Shown piece by piece: positions 5,145 through 20,165 of a stretch of DNA of 64,000 bases. A program made the position numbers and the translations under genes. The DNA is from an uncultured Chlamydiae bacterium. GTDB lineage: Bacteria; Chlamydiota; Chlamydiia; Chlamydiales; JAJFMA01. The stretch is from positions 1,952,001 to 2,016,000 of the forward strand of contig CAVQMM010000001.1 in the NCBI GenBank assembly GCA_963713615.1, in the 5' to 3' direction. Positions within the stretch are counted from its first letter, which is position 1, and each line of letters opens with the position of its first letter. Under the pieces are notes generated by a model. It saw only the letters and a program-made list of their open reading frames with translations. It made no database searches and was not told the origin of the DNA.

Positions 5145-6689
5145 TTATTCGGCAGTGGGGGCTGATGAGGTGGATGAGGCCTTTGCTTGTCGCCTGGCGG
5201 CAGCCCAAGCGTCGGGCAGAAGCTCGTGAAGTTTTTGAGAATTATGGGCTGGCAGGCGCCTCATCACATCCTCTAGGTATTCGTGGGGGTTGACTCCTAT
5301 CGCGCGGCAGGTCTGTACCAGGCTTAGCAGTACGGCGGAAGCTTCCCCACCCTCCTCGCTTCCAATAAACATCCAGTTCTTGCGGCCAATAGCTAGAGGG
5401 CGTATCGCTCGCTCCGCTACATTGTTGTCGAGACGCGCAAATGCATGTTGGGTGTAGTTTTTCAGATGGGGAATTAAGCTGCAATAATAGCCTAGAGCCT
5501 CCCTTAGATTCGATTTGGGAAGAGCCTTGCCATTAACCAGCCGGTCCTTGATGCGTGCAGTCAGCTCATCTATTATTGGAGCTTCTTTCTCTTGTCTTAT
5601 CCGCAGACGTTCCTCTGGAGAACGTTCCCAAGCAACTCTCTCTAACATAAATAGATATTTTATCTTGCGCAGTACCCAGCTAACAAATTTTTTATCGCCA
5701 CCTACAGCGTCGAAAAACTTGCGCCGAATGTGACTCCAGCATGGACACCAAGTGAATTGCTTCTTATTAGCCAGTGCTTCATAGGCTCCATATTTATCCG
5801 AATGGACAACACCTTTATATCCAGCTAGTATTTCCACAGCATGCTTGTGGCAGCGGTCCGTGCGAAAATGATAGACTCGATAAGGCGGATTTTTTTCCTG
5901 CCCTCCAACGATCACCCACATAAAAGCCTGGTGCACCTTTCCCTTACCAGGGACAAGCATGTCCACAGGAGATTCGTCCACAAAAACATTGTTGCTGCTG
6001 AGCACGCGAGCAATCATTTCTTCATATAGCGCCTTTAAGGCATATCCACAGCGCATTACCCACTTGCAAAGTATTTGTCGGCTGATGAGAATGCCCTCGC
6101 GAGCTAAGATTTCCGATTGACGAAATAAAGGAAGGTGATCGGCGAATTTTTTCACGATCACACTGGCTAAAAGACTTTCATCGGCTTGACAGCGAGGAAA
6201 AATGCTATCTGGTAAATCTGCGATAAAAACGCCCTCTTCACTATGTGCTCTACATGCATACTTGGGACGTACTAGCTCCTTGACGTAGTAGCTACCTGGC
6301 GTATGCGCTATTTTGTGAGTGACTTCTTCGCCAATTTTGACGAGGGCTTCACCCGTTGTAGGGCAAACTTTTTGATCCTCTGGCAAATCTAAAATACAGC
6401 GTTGAACGGGAATATTGTCTGGAAGCGTAATTTTATCTTTGCCATTGCGCCCCTGCTTAACCCGTCGATGAGCAGGCACATTTATTGTCTCTTTTTGCTC
6501 TTCGGAACCAAGATTTTCGAAACCTTCCAGGTAGAGTTGTTGACCGCCATCGTCGACTACTTTTTCCGAACGTTTCCCAAAAATCTGACGCCTAAACCAT
6601 TCAAGCTGCTCCTTGAGAAAGCTATTCTCATTTCGCAGGGAATAAATTTCCGATTGAAGCTGTTCTAGTGATAGTGTTGAGGTTTCCAT
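5145..6689 (-). CDS. tnpC: IS66 DDE transposase TnpC
   Basis: FGKRSEK, zinc-binding region, KFADHLPLFRQ, VDES, SDKY, CWSHIRRKF and LDNNVAERAIRPLAIGRKNW. Confidence 0.97.
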   Translation of the reverse strand: METSTLSLEQLQSEIYSLRNENSFLKEQLEWFRRQIFGKRSEKVVDDGGQQLYLEGFENLGSEEQKETINVPAHRRVKQGRNGKDKITLPDNIPVQRCILDLPEDQKVCPTTGEALVKIGEEVTHKIAHTPGSYYVKELVRPKYACRAHSEEGVFIADLPDSIFPRCQADESLLASVIVKKFADHLPLFRQSEILAREGILISRQILCKWVMRCGYALKALYEEMIARVLSSNNVFVDESPVDMLVPGKGKVHQAFMWVIVGGQEKNPPYRVYHFRTDRCHKHAVEILAGYKGVVHSDKYGAYEALANKKQFTWCPCWSHIRRKFFDAVGGDKKFVSWVLRKIKYLFMLERVAWERSPEERLRIRQEKEAPIIDELTARIKDRLVNGKALPKSNLREALGYYCSLIPHLKNYTQHAFARLDNNVAERAIRPLAIGRKNWMFIGSEEGGEASAVLLSLVQTCRAIGVNPHEYLEDVMRRLPAHNSQKLHELLPDAWAAARRQAKASSTSSAPTAE

Positions 6690-6771
6690 ATGCTCTAAAT
6701 CATATCACAGACCCCCTCTATTATCAAGTATTTTATCTAATAAAATGCACATTGTTTTTAGGATTTTAGGC

Positions 6772-7353
6772 TCAATGACTACTCTCCAACAACATTAGAA
6801 ATTCTCGACGATCGATAGCGGAATCTGGAATGCTTCCATTGCGAAAACTTCCTTTTTCAAGTCGCTTGTACCAGACGGCATGACCATTACCATCCCAGTA
6901 AAAGACCTTCACTAGATTTCTACGACGATTTAAAAAAACGAAGTAGGCCCCGCAGGTAAATTCGCCCGAGAACGAACTGTCAACAAGATTGCTCAAGCAC
7001 TCAAATCCCTTTCGCATATCGATCGGCTCTTGATAGAGAAAGACACCCTTGTTTTTCTGATATGACGACCTCAGAGTTTTGCTCGCAGACTTTAGGGTTA
7101 GATAGACGCTCTTCTGATCAAGCGAAAGCTTGAGCTCGGGCAGGGTAATGTCTATCCAACCCGTCGAGGAAATGTGGTCGGGCGGGCTAACTTTAAAGCG
7201 TTGGTACCAGTACAAGAGCTGCTGGTAGCTTATATTGTTCTCTAGGCACCACCTGCGGCCACTCTGACCGCTCGCCATCCATTGGTCTATGCGTCGAGCC
7301 CACTCAGAACGCTTCCTTTTGAAATCCATTAGTATCTCCATGGTTAGGGTCAT
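6772..7353 (-). CDS. IS66 accessory protein, TnpA-TnpB fused in one ORF
   Basis: The N-terminal half is a TnpA-like HTH (W..SGQS...WC....ISY..L.YW). The C-terminal half is TnpB (EPIDMRKGF, FVFLNRRRNLVKVFYWDGNG, KRLEKGSF). Confidence 0.85.
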   Translation of the reverse strand: MTLTMEILMDFKRKRSEWARRIDQWMASGQSGRRWCLENNISYQQLLYWYQRFKVSPPDHISSTGWIDITLPELKLSLDQKSVYLTLKSASKTLRSSYQKNKGVFLYQEPIDMRKGFECLSNLVDSSFSGEFTCGAYFVFLNRRRNLVKVFYWDGNGHAVWYKRLEKGSFRNGSIPDSAIDRREFLMLLESSH

Positions 7354-11578: not shown

Positions 11579-12688
11579 TTAGTCGTTAAAAAACGATCGA
11601 AACATCCACTCCAACGATGCGTTCACGACTTGCTGATCAACCGTTGTGCAGTAACTACCTTTAAACGGCAATGACTCGCCAATACCACCAATCATCACAA
11701 ACCGTGGCAGGCTCTTCGTCGATTTCTTATCGAGAATCATGGCATCGCTCGTCGCTAGTGATGTCATCCCTGTAGGCAGTTTCAGAGGCAATTGATACTG
11801 TCGAAGCACATCGTGGATACGTCTAAAAGAAGTTTCATCCAGATAACCCAGCTGCACAGCCATGTGGGCTTCCACCAACAATCCCAAAGCGACTGCTTCG
11901 CCATGCGCCAACGAGTACTCCGATAGCAACTCCAGGGCATGCCCCACAGTATGTCCAAAGTTCAGAAGGCGACGCATCCCTTGCTCTTTCTCATCTTGCT
12001 CAACAATCGTTTTCTTGATGGCACAGCTATCAAAAATGGCCTTAGCTAAAAGTTCTTCATCACCAGCCAAAAGTTCCTCCGCATGCTGTGCCAAAAACTC
12101 AAAGTGCTGGTAATCGGTGATGCATCCGTGCTTGATCATCTCCACAAAGCCGTTTCGAAGCTCGTTAATCGATAGGGTCTTCAAAACGATTGGATCTATC
12201 AACACCTTTCTGGGTTGATAGATGCTTCCCACGAGGTTTTTACCATAGGGAACATCAACACCTACCTTACCACCAATGCTAGCATCCACCATGGCTAGCA
12301 GAGACGTCGGGGCCATAATTAAGGGTACCCCTCGGCAATACGTTGCCGCTATATACCCTCCCATATCGGTCACGACGCCACCACCCAAAGCAATCACACA
12401 GGTATCTCGTCCCAGTCCCTGCTTAAACATCTGATCTTCCAAAAATGCCTTGGTCTCGCGTGTCTTATGTCGTTCTCCACTTGGAAACGTGAATAGCCAC
12501 GCCTGCCAGCCATGGTCAACAAGCATCGCTTGTAGCTGAAGGGCATGTAACGGACCCACTATGCTATCACTAATGATCACAAAGCGGCTGCCGCAATTTT
12601 CAAAACAGGCACGCTCCGACAATACTCCACTACGGATCTCAATATCGTACGCAACAGCAGGTTGCGAAATCTCACACGTCAGCTTCAT
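11579..12688 (-). CDS. aroB: 3-dehydroquinate synthase
   Basis: GGGVVTDMGG, PTSLLAMVDASIGGK, LLNFGHTVGHALE and HGEAVA. ATGA overlap with the aroC stop. Confidence 0.97.
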   Translation of the reverse strand: MKLTCEISQPAVAYDIEIRSGVLSERACFENCGSRFVIISDSIVGPLHALQLQAMLVDHGWQAWLFTFPSGERHKTRETKAFLEDQMFKQGLGRDTCVIALGGGVVTDMGGYIAATYCRGVPLIMAPTSLLAMVDASIGGKVGVDVPYGKNLVGSIYQPRKVLIDPIVLKTLSINELRNGFVEMIKHGCITDYQHFEFLAQHAEELLAGDEELLAKAIFDSCAIKKTIVEQDEKEQGMRRLLNFGHTVGHALELLSEYSLAHGEAVALGLLVEAHMAVQLGYLDETSFRRIHDVLRQYQLPLKLPTGMTSLATSDAMILDKKSTKSLPRFVMIGGIGESLPFKGSYCTTVDQQVVNASLEWMFRSFFND

Positions 12689-13776
12689 AGTCGCACACAT
12701 CGATTGTAAAGGTATGCGTCAACAAGCACCAAAGCAACCATAGCTTCGACAATCGGGACGGCACGTATGGCAACGCAAGGATCATGACGCGAACCTACAG
12801 GCAGCTGAAAGGCTGCAGCTTCTCCCGAAGTGGTGACAGTCTGCTGCTGCTTCATAATGCTGGATGTAGGCTTAAAAGCGACTCGTCCTACCAATGGCAT
12901 TCCTGTCGAAATCCCACCAAGAGTCCCACCAGCATAGTTGGTATGCGTCTTAATTTCCCCACCCTCTTCGGTAAAGACATCGTTGTGCTGAGATCCTGGC
13001 ATGGTCACAGCACGGAAACCAGAGCCCATCTCAAACCCCTTAGTAGCAGGTAGCGACATCATCGCATGGGCTAGGCTGGCTTCCAGCTTGTCGTAGATGG
13101 GGTCTCCGAGGCCCACAGGTAATCCTGCCGCAGAAAACTCGATGACACCACCAAGAGAATCTCCTTCAGCCTTGGCCTTCTCTATCAACGCTGCCATAGC
13201 GGCAGTCCCTTGTTCATCTGGACAAAACAATGGGCTCCGATAGGTAGCGTCTCGGAGGTCGCCAGGCGGAATGTGCTCAACGTTGGCCTCGATGACCCCT
13301 ATTTGCTTAATGTATGCTGTGATCTCAATACCCACGCGGTGCAGTAGCTTGATGGCGATAGCACCAGCAGCCACGCGCCCTACCGTTTCACGTGCCGAAG
13401 AACGTCCACCGCCTCGATAGTCAAAAATGCCATACTTCTCCAAATAGGTAAAGTTGGCATGACCAGGCCTCAAGAGGTCTTTAATCGGCTCATATTTGCT
13501 GGAGTCAGCGTCCTTATTACGCACGACGATGCAAATGGGAGCGCCTGTAGTACGTCCCTCAAAGACGCCTGAAAGGATTTCAGCCTTGTCAGACTCTTGC
13601 CGAGGGGTGGTATACGGATTACGTCCAGGAGCTCGCAGCGCCAAGGCAGCATTGATCTCACTGTCATCGATCTCTAGGCCTGCAGGACAGCCATCGATGA
13701 CCACTCCAACGGCTTTTCCATGAGATTCTCCCCAGGTAGTTATCCTAAAGATCCGTCCAAACGCGTTGCTAGCCAT
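12685..13776 (-). CDS. aroC: Chorismate synthase
   Basis: GESHG, RPGHA, GGGRSSARET and GSRHDPC signatures. Confidence 0.98.
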   Translation of the reverse strand: MASNAFGRIFRITTWGESHGKAVGVVIDGCPAGLEIDDSEINAALALRAPGRNPYTTPRQESDKAEILSGVFEGRTTGAPICIVVRNKDADSSKYEPIKDLLRPGHANFTYLEKYGIFDYRGGGRSSARETVGRVAAGAIAIKLLHRVGIEITAYIKQIGVIEANVEHIPPGDLRDATYRSPLFCPDEQGTAAMAALIEKAKAEGDSLGGVIEFSAAGLPVGLGDPIYDKLEASLAHAMMSLPATKGFEMGSGFRAVTMPGSQHNDVFTEEGGEIKTHTNYAGGTLGGISTGMPLVGRVAFKPTSSIMKQQQTVTTSGEAAAFQLPVGSRHDPCVAIRAVPIVEAMVALVLVDAYLYNRCVRL

Positions 13777-14299
13777 GCTCTAACCTACGTACAATTTCGG
13801 ATACGATTTGCTCCTGGCTTAAATTGCTAACTTCTAAGGTTACATTTGCCACAGATTCATAGGTGGCTTGTCGTTGTTCAGCTAACTCATAAAAGGCCTT
13901 TTCAGGATCCCCAAGATCCAGATCCAGATATGAAGGTGTTTCGCGCTGTTTCACGCGCTCCCAAAGCACCTTAGGGTCAGCCTTGAGGTAGATCAGGCAT
14001 CCTTCTCGTCTTAGCACTGCGAGATTTACGGGATTAAGCAGTGTGCCTCCGCCTACAGCGATGATAGTCGGTGGCTCGAGTTTCAGTTGGAGGATCTGCT
14101 GTTTTTCTAAGATGCGAAAATAGTCAGCTCCTTCCTTCAGGCTAATCTGACGACAGGTGCACGCCAATCCCGTCTTGGCAGTGTAAGCGGCTTCGATGAG
14201 CGCGTCAGTATCGATGAGTTTCCATCCCCACAACTCGGCGATCTTCTTGGCCACGGTGGTCTTACCGCTTCCAGGCATGCCGCATAAAATCAAATTCAT
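13769..14299 (-). CDS. aroK: Shikimate kinase
   Basis: GMPGSGKTT P-loop, DTD and GGG motifs, plus operon context. Confidence 0.93.
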   Translation of the reverse strand: MNLILCGMPGSGKTTVAKKIAELWGWKLIDTDALIEAAYTAKTGLACTCRQISLKEGADYFRILEKQQILQLKLEPPTIIAVGGGTLLNPVNLAVLRREGCLIYLKADPKVLWERVKQRETPSYLDLDLGDPEKAFYELAEQRQATYESVANVTLEVSNLSQEQIVSEIVRRLEHG

Positions 14300-15585
14300 A
14301 GTGTCTCCTTAATATTAGCTCCAAGAGCATTAAAATCGTGCAAAAAGGTCGGAAAGGTCTTTGCCACACACTCGACAGGTCCAATCGTTGTCTGTCCTTG
14401 CGCACCTAGGCCAGCCACGGTCAAAGACATGACCATGCGATGATCATGATAGGAATGTACTTGCGTACCTTTTAAAGCGGACTTCCTGATGCGTAACCCA
14501 TCTTCCAGCTCGACGACATCAGCACCCATTTTGCGCAGTTCGGTGGCTATACATTGAATGCGATTGCACTCCTTTTGCCTGGCCACTGCAGCATTATAAA
14601 TATGTGTCTCGCCTTCCGCATAACAGGCGACTACAGCCAGAATCGTAATGGCATCAACAAAGTCATTGATATCAACGGCAATGCCGCGAAGAACTTGATT
14701 GGCTGGAATATGCAAAGTACGTTGGTTAGCATCAATCTCAATCGATGCTCCCATGCGCTGAAAAACGTTGATGAGTTCCTTGTCACCTTGCGTATCGCTC
14801 ATATCCACATTGCGAAGTGTGAGCGCTGAGCCCGTTACAAGGGCTGCTGCAAGCGGAAAAGCCACTGAGCTGAGGTCGCCAGGAACAGGGTAATCAAACC
14901 CGGCAACGTGGGCATTGCCGCGCATACGATAGTGTCGATAGTCTTGGTGTTCATAGGGGATTCCCAGTCGATCAAACCAATCTAAAGTCAGCGCAACCCA
15001 AGGTTTTTCGCCGGGGTTGGGCACCAAGAGATCAATAGGTCCTTGGGCAAAGGCTGCAGCAATCAATAGTGAAGAGACTGGCTGGGAGTCTTCACCTTCA
15101 ACTTGAGTGCTTCCGGCCTTCAGGGGTCCCTGGATAATAATCGGAGCAAAACCATCGCCACGGGTAGATATGGCTGATACACCCAGTTGAGCGAGGCCAT
15201 CGAGCAAGGGCTTCATCGGCCTTTGATGCCGAATGGAGTAGTCGCCCGTAATCACGATAGGTCGGTCCGCCAAAGCGGCTATAGCCGCACAGAAACGCAA
15301 TACGATACCCGAATTGCCAGCGTTGATGACATCTTCGGCATACTGAATCCGGCCACCTACCCCACCGATGTTAATCTGGTCTGGCAAGACCTCCAAGGTG
15401 GCCCCTAGCAAACGGCAGGCTTCGATCATCGCGCGGGCATCAGGCGAATCCAGGTAGTTGCATATTGTCGTCTTCCCCGTTGCCAAAGCGCCAAAGAGAA
15501 TAGCTCGCAAAGTATGCGACTTGGATGGCGGCACAAGGATGTCCCCATGCAATGTGGCTTTATTGACCAAGTATTGACTCATCAT
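14296..15585 (-). CDS. aroA: EPSP synthase
   Basis: PPSKSHTLR, GNSG, RPM, DSQPVS, RQKECNRI and DHRM. AAGGAG RBS before ATG 15585. Confidence 0.97.
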   Translation of the reverse strand: MMSQYLVNKATLHGDILVPPSKSHTLRAILFGALATGKTTICNYLDSPDARAMIEACRLLGATLEVLPDQINIGGVGGRIQYAEDVINAGNSGIVLRFCAAIAALADRPIVITGDYSIRHQRPMKPLLDGLAQLGVSAISTRGDGFAPIIIQGPLKAGSTQVEGEDSQPVSSLLIAAAFAQGPIDLLVPNPGEKPWVALTLDWFDRLGIPYEHQDYRHYRMRGNAHVAGFDYPVPGDLSSVAFPLAAALVTGSALTLRNVDMSDTQGDKELINVFQRMGASIEIDANQRTLHIPANQVLRGIAVDINDFVDAITILAVVACYAEGETHIYNAAVARQKECNRIQCIATELRKMGADVVELEDGLRIRKSALKGTQVHSYHDHRMVMSLTVAGLGAQGQTTIGPVECVAKTFPTFLHDFNALGANIKETL

Positions 15586-16639
15586 GAAGCTCCTTATCAA
15601 TCGTTAGCTGATCAATTAAACAGTCAAGGTAACTGCGTATGAACTTCTGATTGAACATTTCAATTTCCGCCCGCATCTCCCTATTTCCATGTGCCAAACG
15701 CGTAAACGAATGAAAGCCAGGGCCTGCCATTTCTAGACTGGCTGGATCTGCTGCCTGCACTAACCGCCAAACGCTTTTCGACAGAATGCCAGGAATGTGC
15801 GATACCAGAGCAGCGCGTTGATCGTGTACATCTGCATCGAGATCAAGCGGTTCAGCGCCCAAAAATCGAATAAACGCCTTTGTCTGCTGTAGCGCCTGAA
15901 TACAGTTTTTGCCATGGGGTACGACGACCCAGGGTCTTCCGACAAAAAGCGTCGCCTGGCCATTGGCAAAACCGCGCTTTTCTGTTCCTGCCATCGGATG
16001 CGTCCCCACAAACTCTACGCGAGCGTCCGATAGCTTTTCAAAAGCCTCCACAATGTTTTCCTTCACGCTAGCAATGTCGATCACGAGCAGCTTCCGAGCG
16101 TTGTAGCGATGCCGCTGAATCTCTTCTGCCAGGGGCACCACGGAAGAAATGGGACTAGCCAGGATAATCACCTCAGAGTATTCCATCAGCTCTACAAGAG
16201 TGTCGCAAGACCTGTCTATGCAACCATTCTCGATTGCCAGAACATAATCCTCCGAAGAGTGCACCATAGTGGCTATTTCAATCGTTGGATCCTTCAACTT
16301 AATGGCTTTGCAAATGGATCCTCCCATCAAGCCTAGCCCAATGATGCCTACTCGCCTAAAGGGGCTTGCGGGATATTTGAAAAACTGCTGACTTATTTTG
16401 GACCCTTCTATGATGGCTTGAAAGATTATGCCGATGCTCTCCTTAAGCACAGGATGCTGCACCTGCATCTCTGCACGCTCCACAATCGTTCCTTCGCGTC
16501 CTTTGTCCGTTAAGGGAAGGTTGTGTTGGTATTTGACTTGGCCGATCTGACCCACCATGGTCATTCTTTCATCCAATAACGAGGTAATTTGAGCATCAAT
16601 TTGATCCAGGCGATCACGCAATGACGTTAAGTTTTCCAT
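15560..16639 (-). CDS. tyrA: Bifunctional chorismate mutase (AroQ) / prephenate dehydrogenase
   Basis: N-terminal LRDRLDQIDAQITSLLDERM...IGQVK...D.GRE is the mutase domain. It is followed by GLGLMGGS, DIASVK, HPMAGTE and HDQ...SHIP. Start at 16639 after a GCAGGA RBS. Confidence 0.92.
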   Translation of the reverse strand: MENLTSLRDRLDQIDAQITSLLDERMTMVGQIGQVKYQHNLPLTDKGREGTIVERAEMQVQHPVLKESIGIIFQAIIEGSKISQQFFKYPASPFRRVGIIGLGLMGGSICKAIKLKDPTIEIATMVHSSEDYVLAIENGCIDRSCDTLVELMEYSEVIILASPISSVVPLAEEIQRHRYNARKLLVIDIASVKENIVEAFEKLSDARVEFVGTHPMAGTEKRGFANGQATLFVGRPWVVVPHGKNCIQALQQTKAFIRFLGAEPLDLDADVHDQRAALVSHIPGILSKSVWRLVQAADPASLEMAGPGFHSFTRLAHGNREMRAEIEMFNQKFIRSYLDCLIDQLTIDKELHDESILGQ

Positions 16640-17451
16640 AATATTCCTGCTTTGTAAAGTCCTAATATTCTTATTGTTTGACCAAGAGTAGCCAATTCGG
16701 CATGACCGCACTGGGTCATGTCGTCTGTAAACTCGAAGTCCACGTAAAACACATATTCAAATGGCTGACCGCGTAAGGGGCGCGACTCCATCTTCATGAG
16801 ATTGAAGCCTTGACTGCTAAAGCGGTTCAACACGGCGGCTAGTGCTCCGGGAACATGCTCCAAACGCAAGGATAAGGAACACTTACTGGCGCCAGGAACA
16901 ACGACCCTTTCCTTAGATACGATCACGAACCGCGTATAGTTGCTTGGATCGTCCTCAATCCCTCGCTGCAATCCCGACAGCCCATAGATCTCACCCGCCG
17001 ATGCACTGGCAATAGCGGCATAGGCAGGGTCTCCTGAAGCAGAAACAGATGCTGCCGCCGCGGCAGTATCGCTATGCGCGATACCTTGCATCCAAGGATG
17101 CTTTTCGAAGAATGCTAAGCATTGCTCCAAGGCTTTGGGATGCGAAAACACAGTCTTAACATCCTTTAAAGTGGCATGAGGCATCCCAAGCAGACAGTGG
17201 TCAACCTTAAGAAAATGCTCTTCAACAATAGTGAACTGATGCTGCTCCAGGAGGTCATAATTTTCATAAATTGACCCCACTAAGCTATTTTCAATAGGAA
17301 CAGCAGCATAGTCAGCCTCACCATCCTCAAGCCGCTGAAACACTTCTCGGAATGTCTTGGCGCTCACAAAATGGTTGTCTTGGCCGGAACTTTTCACAGC
17401 AGCTAAATAGCTAAATGAGCCTCTCAGCCCTAGATGTGCGATCGTCTTCAT
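16627..17451 (-). CDS. pheA: Prephenate dehydratase with ACT domain
   Basis: GSFS, VPIENSLVGSI, SHPKALEQC, NYTRF and ESRP. ATGA overlap with the DAHP synthase stop. Confidence 0.95.
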   Translation of the reverse strand: MKTIAHLGLRGSFSYLAAVKSSGQDNHFVSAKTFREVFQRLEDGEADYAAVPIENSLVGSIYENYDLLEQHQFTIVEEHFLKVDHCLLGMPHATLKDVKTVFSHPKALEQCLAFFEKHPWMQGIAHSDTAAAAASVSASGDPAYAAIASASAGEIYGLSGLQRGIEDDPSNYTRFVIVSKERVVVPGASKCSLSLRLEHVPGALAAVLNRFSSQGFNLMKMESRPLRGQPFEYVFYVDFEFTDDMTQCGHAELATLGQTIRILGLYKAGILWKT

Positions 17452-18254
17452 GCGATGTCCCATTGGTATTTGGGTCCCTGAGTAATCCTCAACAGCTCTT
17501 TGAATTGTTCAGGAGAGAGCTGCTGCTTCGCATCCGTCTTAGCCTTCTGGGGCTCGCTATGCATTTCCACCAAGCAACCATCGAAGTCATAAGCCGCTGA
17601 CGCCGCCATCACATCGAGGACATTTTCCGGTGACCCACCAATATGAGAGGGATCCAACAACATGGGGATACCCGTCTGCTGCTTCACTCGCATAGCCATG
17701 TCGAAATCGGGCAGATTGCGAAAGCCCTTAGGGTTCGGCTGTTTGCCCGGGCAGAAACCGCGGTGGCAGGTCATCAGACGTTCCTGCGGGAATCCAGCCG
17801 CCAGAAGGTGCTCGTAGATACCTAGCCAATGCCGCTCATCATCCCACATCTGGTTCTTGAACATCAGAGTGATGCCTTTGGGGCCTGCGGCAAGAATCTG
17901 AGCAATACGCCTCTGTTCGATATGGTTTTGGTTGCGCGATCCCAGCCACACCAGCATGCGCGCATCGCGTCCATAATGTTCCAAAGCTTGCACGATCATG
18001 TGAGCGTGCTCGACGCTGATGATCTCCGTGGCTGGGGTCATGCCATGAGCAAGCGTCTCTTCCAATAAAAGTGGAAGGCTCATCCATCCGAGTCCCTCCC
18101 AACCCGGCTGTGTGCGCGGTTTCCATAAGGAGGCTCGTATCATGGTGACGCCCAGCTGCTTTAAAATTCGCGCACACTCTCTTAGCTGGTGCCGAGATTC
18201 CAAAGCACATGGGCCCGCAATGACCCATTTGCCGATATTTGTCTGTTTAAGCAT
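17448..18254 (-). CDS. DAHP synthase, class I-beta, stand-alone catalytic barrel
   Basis: IAGPCALES, WKPRT, GSRNQN, CHRG, DPSH and KTDAKQQ. It is 268 aa with no N- or C-terminal regulatory domain. AAAGGA RBS. Confidence 0.88.
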   Translation of the reverse strand: MLKQTNIGKWVIAGPCALESRHQLRECARILKQLGVTMIRASLWKPRTQPGWEGLGWMSLPLLLEETLAHGMTPATEIISVEHAHMIVQALEHYGRDARMLVWLGSRNQNHIEQRRIAQILAAGPKGITLMFKNQMWDDERHWLGIYEHLLAAGFPQERLMTCHRGFCPGKQPNPKGFRNLPDFDMAMRVKQQTGIPMLLDPSHIGGSPENVLDVMAASAAYDFDGCLVEMHSEPQKAKTDAKQQLSPEQFKELLRITQGPKYQWDIA

Positions 18255-18289
18255 TTTTCAAATCCTTTCTTTTTTTGATTTTGGACAAT

Positions 18290-18315
18290 AAAAAACCCCG
18301 CCTTAGGCGGGGTTT
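18290..18315 (-). terminator. Attenuator terminator 2, next to the DAHP synthase gene
   Basis: Minus strand AAACCCCGCC-TAA-GGCGGGGTTTTTT, ending about 35 nt before the first start codon of the operon. Confidence 0.9.
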
Positions 18316-18350
18316 GCGTTTGGGTTAGCCTTATTTTTATGCTAACGACA

Positions 18351-18464
18351 TCACAACTCCCGCCATGGGTGTGGAGTAAAAAAGTAATAATAAAAGTAGA
18401 AGCTGCAGCCTTGGACAGAAGCCCTAAACTCGATGGCAGGATTGTGACTGTCTGAATGATACAT
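18351..18464 (-). CDS. Leader peptide 2 of the aro operon (37 aa): MYHSDSHNPAIEFRASVQGCSFYFYYYFFTPHPWREL
   Basis: Eight consecutive Phe/Tyr codons (TTC TAC TTT TAT TAT TAC TTT TTT), then a Trp codon. The stop lies 36 nt before terminator 2. Confidence 0.85.
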   Translation of the reverse strand: MYHSDSHNPAIEFRASVQGCSFYFYYYFFTPHPWREL

Positions 18465-18503
18465 TTTATTTTATTCCACTAAAAACTGGTTCGGATTCGG
18501 ACC

Positions 18504-18536
18504 AAAAAAAAGCCCCGCTTGTGGCGGGGCTTTTTT
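18504..18536 (-). terminator. Attenuator terminator 1, nearer the promoter
   Basis: Minus strand AAAAAAGCCCCGC-CACAA-GCGGGGCTTTTTTTT. Confidence 0.9.
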
Positions 18537-18564
18537 GATCACTTGTTAAAGTTTATTACAAGCG

Positions 18565-18636
18565 TCAGCTAGCCTCACACCACTTAGGTGCCTTCATAAA
18601 GTAATAGAAGTAGGCAAAAGCTAACAAATGACGCAC
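18565..18636 (-). CDS. Leader peptide 1 of the aro operon (23 aa): MRHLLAFAYFYYFMKAPKWCEAS
   Basis: GTG start 9 nt after AAGGA. Six Phe/Tyr codons within seven positions, then a Trp codon. The stop lies 28 nt before terminator 1. Confidence 0.8.
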   Translation of the reverse strand: MRHLLAFAYFYYFMKAPKWCEAS

Positions 18637-18665
18637 TGTAACGCATCCTTTATTTATTTAACCTA

Positions 18666-18695
18666 ATTTTAAATTAATTAGCTATTTTTTTGCAA
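18666..18695 (-). promoter_or_regulatory. Putative sigma66/sigma70 promoter of the aro leader
   Basis: TTGCAA-N18-TAAAAT on the minus strand, about 30 nt upstream of the leader-1 GTG. Confidence 0.55.
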
Positions 18696-18719: not shown

Positions 18720-18822
18720 CTTAATGTCCATTTCTGTCCATAGTGTCCATGCTGTCCATTAATGTCCATTCTAGCCCCAGTATAAATGGACTTTATGGAC
18801 AATAATGGACTCCATGGACAGA
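18720..18822. repeat. GTCCAT/ATGGAC micro-repeat palindrome
   Basis: Four TGTCCAT-type units 9 nt apart face ATGGAC units. A near-identical copy lies at about 62351-62460, with remnants at about 21630, 43910 and 44695. Confidence 0.8.
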
Positions 18823-20165
18823 AATGCCAGGGGTCAGTCGTGACTTATTGACTTGTTGCCTTCAGTCAAAGGGCCTGTCCGTAACGAAAAGTCAACAAGT
18901 CACGTCTAGACCCCTAACACGTCTGACCCCTAACATTGTGAGAAGGCGATTCTGGAGAGCTTAAGTGGTATGGCACTATCCAGTCTGGAAAGACAGGCTT
19001 TTTTCCCTTCCCAGGCCCGAAGGGTCGATATTGCAACAGGCCATGGCATCGCCATGGTATATGCCAAAACGGTTTTAGCAGCCTGTAGGGCTGCCATAAA
19101 GCGCATGCATAAATGGTGTTTGTAAACTGGCGTCTTGTAGCAGTCCTTCAGACTGCGAAATCCCTTCCTGGCATATACCATGGCGATGCCATCGGCCTGT
19201 TGCAATATCGACCCTTCGGGCCTGGGAAGGGAGAATGCCAGGGGTCAGTCGTGACTTATTGACTTGTTGCCTTCAGTCAAAGGGCCTGTCCGTAACGAAA
19301 AGTCAACAAGTCACGTCTGACCCCTAACATCTGACCCCTAGCATTGTGAGAAGGCGATTCTGGAGAGCTTAAGTGGTATGGCACTATCCAGTCTGGAAAG
19401 ACAGGCTTTTTTTCCCTTCCCAGGCCCGAAGGGTCGATATTGCAACAGGCCATGGCATCGCCATGGTATATGCCAAAACGGTTTTAGCAGCCTGTAGGGC
19501 TGCCATAAAGCGCATGCATAAATGGTGTTTGTAAACTGGCGTCTTGTAGCAGTCCTTCAGACTGCGAAATCCCTTCCTGGCATATACCATGGCGATGCCA
19601 TGGCCTGTTGCAATATCGACCCTTCGGGCCTGGGAAGGGAGAATGCCAGGGGTCAGTCGTGACTTATTGACTTGTTGCCTTCAGTCAAAGGGCCTGTCCG
19701 TAACGAAAAGTCAACAAGTCACGTCTGACCCCTAACATTGTGAGAAGGCGATTCTGGAGAGCTTAAGTGGTATGGCACTATCCAGTCTGGAAAGACAGGC
19801 TTTTCTCCCTTCCCAGGCCCGAAGGGTCGATATTGCAACAGGCCATGGCATCGCCATGGTATATGCCAAAACGGTTTTAGCAGCCTGTAGGGCTGCCATA
19901 AAGCGCATACATAAATGGTGTTTGTAAACTGGCGTCTTGTAGCAGTCCTTCAGACTGCGAAATCCCTTCCTGGCATATACCATGGCGATGCCATGGCCTG
20001 TTGCAATATCGACCCTTCGGGCCTGGGAAGGGAGAAAAGCCTGTCTTTCCAGACTGGATAGTGCCATACCACTTAAGCTCTCTAGAATCGCCTTCTCACA
20101 AAAAAAGGTAACCTTTTTTCCCGAGAATCGATTCTCAAGGGCTCAAATAATTTTGCAATTACCTC
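18823..20165. repeat. Three tandem units of about 410 bp built from REP-like hairpins and part of the 752-bp element
   Basis: AATGCCAGGGGTCAGTCGTGAC starts at 18823, 19234 and 19642. The last unit ends in the element terminus TGCAATTACCTC. Confidence 0.9.

Follow-up and report, generated by a model that had tools for sequence, protein, structure and literature searches.

The window analysed here is a 64,000-nucleotide stretch of an uncultured Chlamydiae bacterium genome, and coordinates given without a prefix follow its numbering. On its minus strand lies a cluster of aromatic amino acid genes that begins with aroF, encoding a 268-aa, type I-beta-like DAHP synthase that scores below curated cut-offs (17448–18254). 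It is followed by pheA, encoding prephenate dehydratase (16627–17463), by tyrA, encoding a chorismate mutase–prephenate dehydrogenase fusion whose true start is probably ~25 codons inside the annotated frame (15560–16711), and by aroA, aroK, aroC and aroB, which overlap or abut (11579–15600). An initial sequence-only reading of the window had proposed a seven-gene aromatic operon here, and the order aroF-pheA-CM/tyrA-aroA-aroK-aroC-aroB downstream of the leaders confirms it. The shikimate dehydrogenase gene is located elsewhere in the genome, outside the operon, and the trp genes also sit elsewhere, beside the TrpR gene. A search of the 99%-complete genome for a TyrR-type HTH found none. The closest named relatives of the DAHP synthase belong to Parachlamydiaceae and to Chlamydiales genome bins, and the operon is rare, with a close orthologue in 11 of 400 genomes of the phylum. 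The surroundings include repetitive and mobile DNA. Directly upstream of the candidate promoter, positions 18720–20100 hold a composite array of ~400-nt palindromic repeat units and ATGGAC-rich repeats; a 275-nt unit of this array has 185 near-full-length matches in the genome, occurs beside trpR too, and is MITE- or REP-like. Two minus-strand ORFs at 5145–7353 resemble, judging from their translations, an IS66-type transposase and an accessory gene.

Between the array and aroF lies a leader composed of two homologous cassettes, each with an F/Y-rich leader ORF, an antiterminator strand, an inner hairpin and a U-tailed terminator, in that order. The promoter-like site, ORFs, terminators, ribosome-binding site and ATG that the sequence-only reading had placed on the minus strand are all found where it put them. 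The promoter candidate is of the sigma-70 type, TTGCAA-N18-TAAAAT (18666–18695, with TTGCAA at 18695–18690 and TAAAAT at 18671–18666), and has a predicted start at ~18659. Leader ORF 1 (18565–18636) encodes a 23-aa peptide, VRHLLAFAYFYYFMKAPKWCEAS, and begins with GTG at an aligned position where most relatives have ATG; its Shine–Dalgarno (SD) sequence, AAAGGA (18646–18651), forms a −5.5 kcal/mol duplex with the genome's own anti-SD. Its control codons, FAYFYYF (18598–18618), are followed by antiterminator strand 1, GUGGUGUGAGGCU (18571–18583), a G–U variant of the family's GGCGGGAG with a W codon inside it. Inner hairpin 1 (18540–18564; p = 0.01 against shuffles) lies within the antiterminator loop, and intrinsic terminator 1 (18504–18536), recognized by sequence and fold, is a GC hairpin with a U8 tail at −16.9 kcal/mol. 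Leader ORF 2 (18351–18464) has a weak SD (−3.3 kcal/mol) and encodes a 37-aa peptide, MYHSDSHNPAIEFRASVQGCSFYFYYYFFTPHPWREL, with control codons FYFYYYFF (18378–18401) and antiterminator strand 2, GGCGGGAGUU (18355–18364). It is followed by inner hairpin 2 (18324–18346), whose p = 0.11 is not significant alone, and by intrinsic terminator 2 (18290–18315; −16.2 kcal/mol), again recognized by sequence and fold. The DAHP synthase gene then has AAAGGA at 18268–18263 and its ATG at 18254. The antiterminator pairings proposed earlier hold up, with computed duplexes of −14.7 kcal/mol in cassette 1 and −13.7 kcal/mol in cassette 2.

The leader as a whole folds with z = −5.6, and none of 100 shuffles was as stable. 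A simple terminator scan listed terminator 2 and missed terminator 1, whose hairpin is seen by folding. The scan of the 3.97-Mb genome covered 407 terminator-like sites. These two alone are preceded by a short ORF containing a stretch in which at least 6 of 7 codons are F/Y/W, and the scan yielded no other convincing amino-acid leader. An alternative ATG start for leader 1, at 18646, is improbable: it overlaps the SD, the SD upstream of it is weaker (−3.6 versus −5.5 kcal/mol), and the starts of relatives align with the GTG instead. The frame that it opens inside the SD (18646–18584, minus strand) reads MRYSASFVSFCLLLLLYEGT, with five Leu codons, and is probably a by-product of the U-rich run. 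A sequence 83% identical to the second, 3′ portion of cassette 1 (half of the cassette, comprising the stop codon, inner hairpin and terminator) is found elsewhere in the genome (L072:1500–1570; G000:C1:352962–353030), where it forms the end of a gene for a 485-aa dual-specificity phosphatase.

To assess conservation, the upstream DNA was read at every locus whose product is at least 42% identical to the DAHP synthase. There are 37 of these, one of which (L049) duplicates another (L030), leaving 36 distinct orthologous loci. Fifteen have two cassettes (the present locus, L002, L027–L029, L034, L036–L040, L042, L043, L047 and L051), nine have one (L030, L031, L041, L044, L048 and the four distant loci L033, L035, L045 and L046), nine have none and three cut-off loci are uninformative (L005, L050 and L054); these counts overstate the number of independent cases because several metagenome loci are close kin. 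L043 is counted as a pair, its first leader being lost at the contig end and the terminator of that leader alone being visible. The search upstream of homologous operons suggested by the sequence-only reading recovers paired F/Y-rich short ORFs at 15 of the 36 distinct loci. The cassettes share a common order of F/Y run, short spacer, GGCGGGAG-type strand, stop codon, inner hairpin, CCCCGCC-loop-GCGGGG hairpin and U tract. The inner hairpin reaches p ≤ 0.05 against shuffles in 23 of 34 cassettes. The frame richest in F/Y/W is the ORF frame in all 34, a test that is partly circular because the ORFs had been selected by F/Y/W content. Within four codons past the F/Y run, 27 of the 34 cassettes carry a Pro codon (the spacers of the present leader lie at 18597–18584 and 18377–18365); the C-rich spacer bases are retained out of frame in L041, so they may act at the RNA level.

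A promoter match of at least 9 of 12 positions precedes leader 1 at 10 of the 14 tandem loci and is found between terminator 1 and leader 2 at none of the 14, in windows of unequal length of which the between-cassette one is often the shorter. This bears out the claim that no obvious promoter separates terminator 1 from leader 2. The claim of a promoter before leader 1 fares less simply: the site is present and its placement recurs, but the match by itself is not above chance, with one found against 2.1 expected.

The relationships among cassettes point to the age of the pair. Of 29 cassettes, 27 are closest to the cassette in the same position at another locus; partner cassettes within a locus are 58–73% identical. 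Because same-position cassettes cluster as separate families, an old duplication is indicated, in a tree that is built from short sequences, weakly supported and unsure in its placement of L002, L047 and L051. A single old duplication is the probable origin of the pair, and selection has probably kept both copies. L041 and L048 each have a single first-type cassette and are nested inside a well-supported tandem clade; their single state is probably the loss of a cassette. The pair is nevertheless dispensable, since nine loci have one cassette and nine have none. At L065 and L067, the terminator of a single cassette is followed by a short ORF that lacks an aromatic run and by a 400-nt gap; this may be a decayed second cassette or a gene remnant.

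Whether leader translation could set the fate of the transcript was addressed with a folding model in which pairing is blocked to 13 nt past the start of the A site and the transcript ends at the terminator 5′ arm. Constraining the ribosome-covered segments in this way, as the sequence-only reading had proposed, predicts a position-dependent antiterminator. A ribosome placed on the last aromatic codon is predicted to leave the 5′ arm sequestered (P ≥ 0.5) in all 38 cassettes; when it is moved to the stop codon, P falls below 0.5 in 35 of 38. Median sequestration of the arm is 0.87 stalled, 0.18 at the stop and 0.51 for shuffled spacers. From stalled to stop, the values in the present leader change from 0.98 to 0.06 in cassette 1 and from 0.92 to 0.42 in cassette 2, and in the folding the 5′ arm is released once the ribosome advances 3–4 codons beyond the F/Y run. 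The last aromatic codon lies 10–18 nt from the antiterminator (mode 14) and the stop codon 21–45 nt from the terminator; the modal spacing agrees with the ribosome footprint of 12–15 nt quoted in the available text of PMC3641672. Once the hairpin is completely made, the terminator is favoured at equilibrium even under a stall (P 0.76–1.00), so the choice must fall during transcription and the switch must be kinetic. A toy race between ribosome and polymerase at assumed rates serves as illustration and not as evidence; it gives read-through of 0.16–1.0 for one cassette and 0.027–0.99 for two.

In the antiterminator helix, conservation is more evident than covariation: 93% of cells pair, a value reached in 79 of 500 shuffles, with one double change, and RNAalifold on the cassettes returns the terminator only. 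Across cassettes the antiterminator motif is read in several frames (WRE, RRE, GGS and GGR) and is therefore an RNA element. All 34 early transcripts fold into a 1:2 protector or pause hairpin, but this beats shuffles in only eight of the 34 cassettes; against shuffles, those of the present leader score 2/100 (cassette 1) and 9/100 (cassette 2).

The identity of the putative control codons follows operon gene content across the loci. Control codons number 111 F and 87 Y in the 16 operons that include pheA, whereas the operons without pheA (L031, L044 and L051) have 1 F and 16 Y, amounting to two or three independent cases because L044 and L051 are sister branches. L050, which has pheA and no tyrA, reads FFWFFW in its cut leader. 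Two exceptions are L048, which has F codons only though tyrA is present, and L028, which has both F and Y without tyrA in the operon. First and second leaders are alike in F:Y content (43:45 and 61:54, respectively), and the two cassettes thus appear to be old paralogues tuned to the same F + Y signal. The sequence-only reading had listed F, Y and W as leader codons. The F/Y runs stand, as they match the operon genes, but W as a sensor probably does not. In both leaders here the W codon lies inside the antiterminator; it is not conserved, occurring in 12 of 34 cassette tails, and a ribosome placed on it blocks the antiterminator in folding (P 0.07 and 0.15). The antiterminator sequence most likely brings these W codons with it as by-products. 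Because W sits in the antiterminator, the frame of the motif varies and a ribosome on W blocks pairing, we do not expect Trp sensing by these leaders and reject it.

Related leaders occur elsewhere in the phylum. A covariance model of the cassette finds matches in 6 of 151 genomes and in four of five chosen genomes. In five chlamydial genomes (L067, L068, L069, L070 and L076), a single first-type cassette with a Phe-rich run precedes Trp/Tyr permeases, the identity of which was checked by PF03222 for two of the five. In one genome, a new match lies ~400 nt before an aminotransferase gene. Leaders of an unrelated, Ile/Val-rich type are doubled before the acetolactate synthase gene ilvB at two of ten loci, L081 (G012:C24, ~400–20 nt upstream) and L085 (G002:C66), with a GGTGCGG strand and a CCGCACC terminator in each cassette; the second G012 cassette shows no switch-off in folding (0.68 at the stop). 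A single Ile/Val leader of the same type is present at L084 (G197). The query used did not find ilvB in the genome that carries the present window.

These observations converge on one reading, which we consider likely to be right: the two homologous Phe/Tyr leader cassettes would be serial, same-signal, ribosome-coupled attenuators on one transcript. The original proposal of two attenuators in series behind one promoter, with read-through needed at both, gains support from conservation at 15 loci, the folding switch, promoter placement and the match between codons and genes. What the sequences establish is the anatomy, the conservation, the geometry and the codon–gene match; that the leaders are translated, that the hairpins terminate transcription, that the cassettes act independently and that the pair brings a benefit is inferred. 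When charged tRNA-Phe and tRNA-Tyr are plentiful, the ribosome would cover the GGCGGGAG-type strand on its way to the stop codon and the terminator would fold, ending transcripts near 18504 and those that escape near 18290. When Phe or Tyr is short, the ribosome would stall on the F/Y run, ~14 nt before the antiterminator, which would then lie just outside the footprint. The freed strand could pair across the inner hairpin with the terminator 5′ arm before the 3′ arm exists, and polymerase would read on. At leader 2, a further ribosome would initiate afresh and repeat the starvation test. Because both cassettes read the same signal, their read-through probabilities would multiply, which may lower basal leak and steepen the response in a genome in which no TyrR-type repressor was found; multiplying the leak across two cassettes could be the reason for keeping the pair.

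Other readings of the same leader differ in what they assign to the second cassette. It may be real yet a redundant or leaky duplicate that adds no tightness while one cassette does the work, which we regard as unlikely. In its favour, L041 and L048 retain only a first-type cassette from within the tandem clade, and the SD of leader 2 is weak; against it, second cassettes retain codon run, spacing and pairing despite having diverged so far from their partners, and doubling recurs with the unrelated Ile/Val leader before ilvB in G012 and G002. A division of the signal, with one cassette reading Phe and the other Tyr or Trp as a logic gate, seems very improbable. Both runs in the present leader mix F and Y, the F:Y ratios of first and second leaders are alike, and although each leader here has a W codon, and W falls inside the run in 5 of 34 cassettes elsewhere in the set, a ribosome stalled on the W codons of the present leader would block the very antiterminator in which they lie.

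The cassettes might instead be linked by an RNA relay, in which the 3′ arm of terminator 1, once free, would occupy the 5′ arm of terminator 2, so that one stall opens both. Folding predicts such a relay at L041 and L031, where one leader is followed by two adjacent terminator hairpins before the DAHP synthase gene (P 0.87 and 0.94 stalled versus 0.30 and 0.24 at the stop). In the present leader, by contrast, the state of the first ribosome barely alters terminator 2 (0.48 versus 0.41) and leader 2 has an antiterminator of its own, so we give the relay here scarcely any credence. Equally hard to credit is that leader 2 has its own promoter, or that the ORFs are not translated and the hairpins serve simply as terminators or in RNA processing. 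A TAAAAT does occur at 18473–18468, but it lies 4 nt from the ATG and lacks a −35 match, in keeping with the empty between-cassette windows of the tandem loci, and the codon–gene match and fixed spacing need translation. Serial same-signal attenuation remains our preferred account. Among the features of same-signal serial switches, the one-promoter layout and like codon content are present, and independence is seen in folding only.

A broader proposal, on which we are evenly divided, is that serial duplication is a general, selected design in environmental chlamydiae. Each aromatic or branched-chain operon would have two same-signal checkpoints that multiply read-through and replace a repressor; leader codons would be retuned with gene gain and loss, and collapsed forms would keep double termination by RNA relay. 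If true, such a design would parallel pseudo-cooperative tandem riboswitches, with the ribosome as the sensor. A conserved doubled form would mean that attenuation sensed by ribosomes lends itself to stacking, as tandem riboswitches do, so as to cut leak and steepen the response, and that host-dependent chlamydiae exert active control over their amino-acid synthesis. The series of natural variants, from two cassettes or one through a single leader with two terminators to Tyr-only leaders (L051 and L044) and a Phe-only leader (L048), makes attenuation-sensitivity theory testable, and the unannotated leader family can help to annotate aromatic operons and permeases.

The standard teaching on amino-acid operons presents the leader-peptide attenuator as a single switch. 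The systems compared below are taken from the accessible portions of the cited papers. Escherichia coli pheL-pheA (PMC3082878) resembles the present cassettes in its short leader ORF of cognate codons, alternative antiterminator and U-tailed terminator before Phe-pathway genes, but it is described as single, Phe-only and gammaproteobacterial, whereas here two cassettes with mixed Phe/Tyr codons precede a seven-gene operon. The two cassettes score 31.4 and 31.0 bits against the Rfam Phe_leader family RF01859, below its gathering threshold of 55 bits, and are not members; that family has a Phe-only run directly before pheA, in contrast to the mixed F/Y runs before DAHP synthase. Rfam yielded no family at threshold on the leader, and no T-box or riboswitch among 46 matches at E ≤ 10. 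The nearest functional match, likened by description and not by sequence, is aroR-aroF of Corynebacterium glutamicum, in which a single Phe-Tyr-Phe leader precedes a DAHP-synthase operon and is reported to respond to Phe and not to Tyr (PMC11802643).

Within the phylum, published accounts of Chlamydia trachomatis trp regulation invoke TrpR, a WWW motif in YtgCR and a disputed trpL (PMC7755916, PMC3937554). The likeness lies in aromatic codons serving as a starvation sensor; in those accounts, however, YtgR is trans-acting and trpL lacks validation and is considered a poor attenuator, whereas the present leaders have canonical cis attenuator designs. Almost all predicted chlamydial attenuators are without an assigned function according to the accessible part of PMC2965389. 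A search of openly accessible papers returned no report of the element or of doubled same-signal leader-peptide attenuators, which agrees with the sequence-only reading, which knew of no such layout in chlamydiae. The available portions of PMC4833913 and PMC1262725 hold nothing on tandem leaders.

The further claim that pheL/trpL-type leaders normally occur singly agrees with that search as far as the doubled same-signal form goes, but tandem leader ORFs as such have a precedent. In Salmonella mgtCBR, described by its authors as a singular example, the leader ORFs mgtM and mgtP each control read-through, in response to ATP and proline, with additive effect (PMC3641672). As presented there, that system reads different signals without intrinsic terminators and is not biosynthetic, whereas the present cassettes are homologous, have intrinsic terminators and would read the same signal. 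Two predicted attenuators, one of them internal, are also described for the Streptococcus aromatic supraoperon (PMC1173090). Same-signal tandem switches with two termination decisions, for which a steeper response is expected, are represented by pseudo-cooperative riboswitches and double T-boxes (PMC9481103, PMC9413887). In those cases ligand or tRNA is bound directly by the RNA, whereas in the present leader a translating ribosome would do the sensing. We conclude that the predicted doubled Phe/Tyr leader-peptide attenuator is a real, conserved and new form of classical attenuation.
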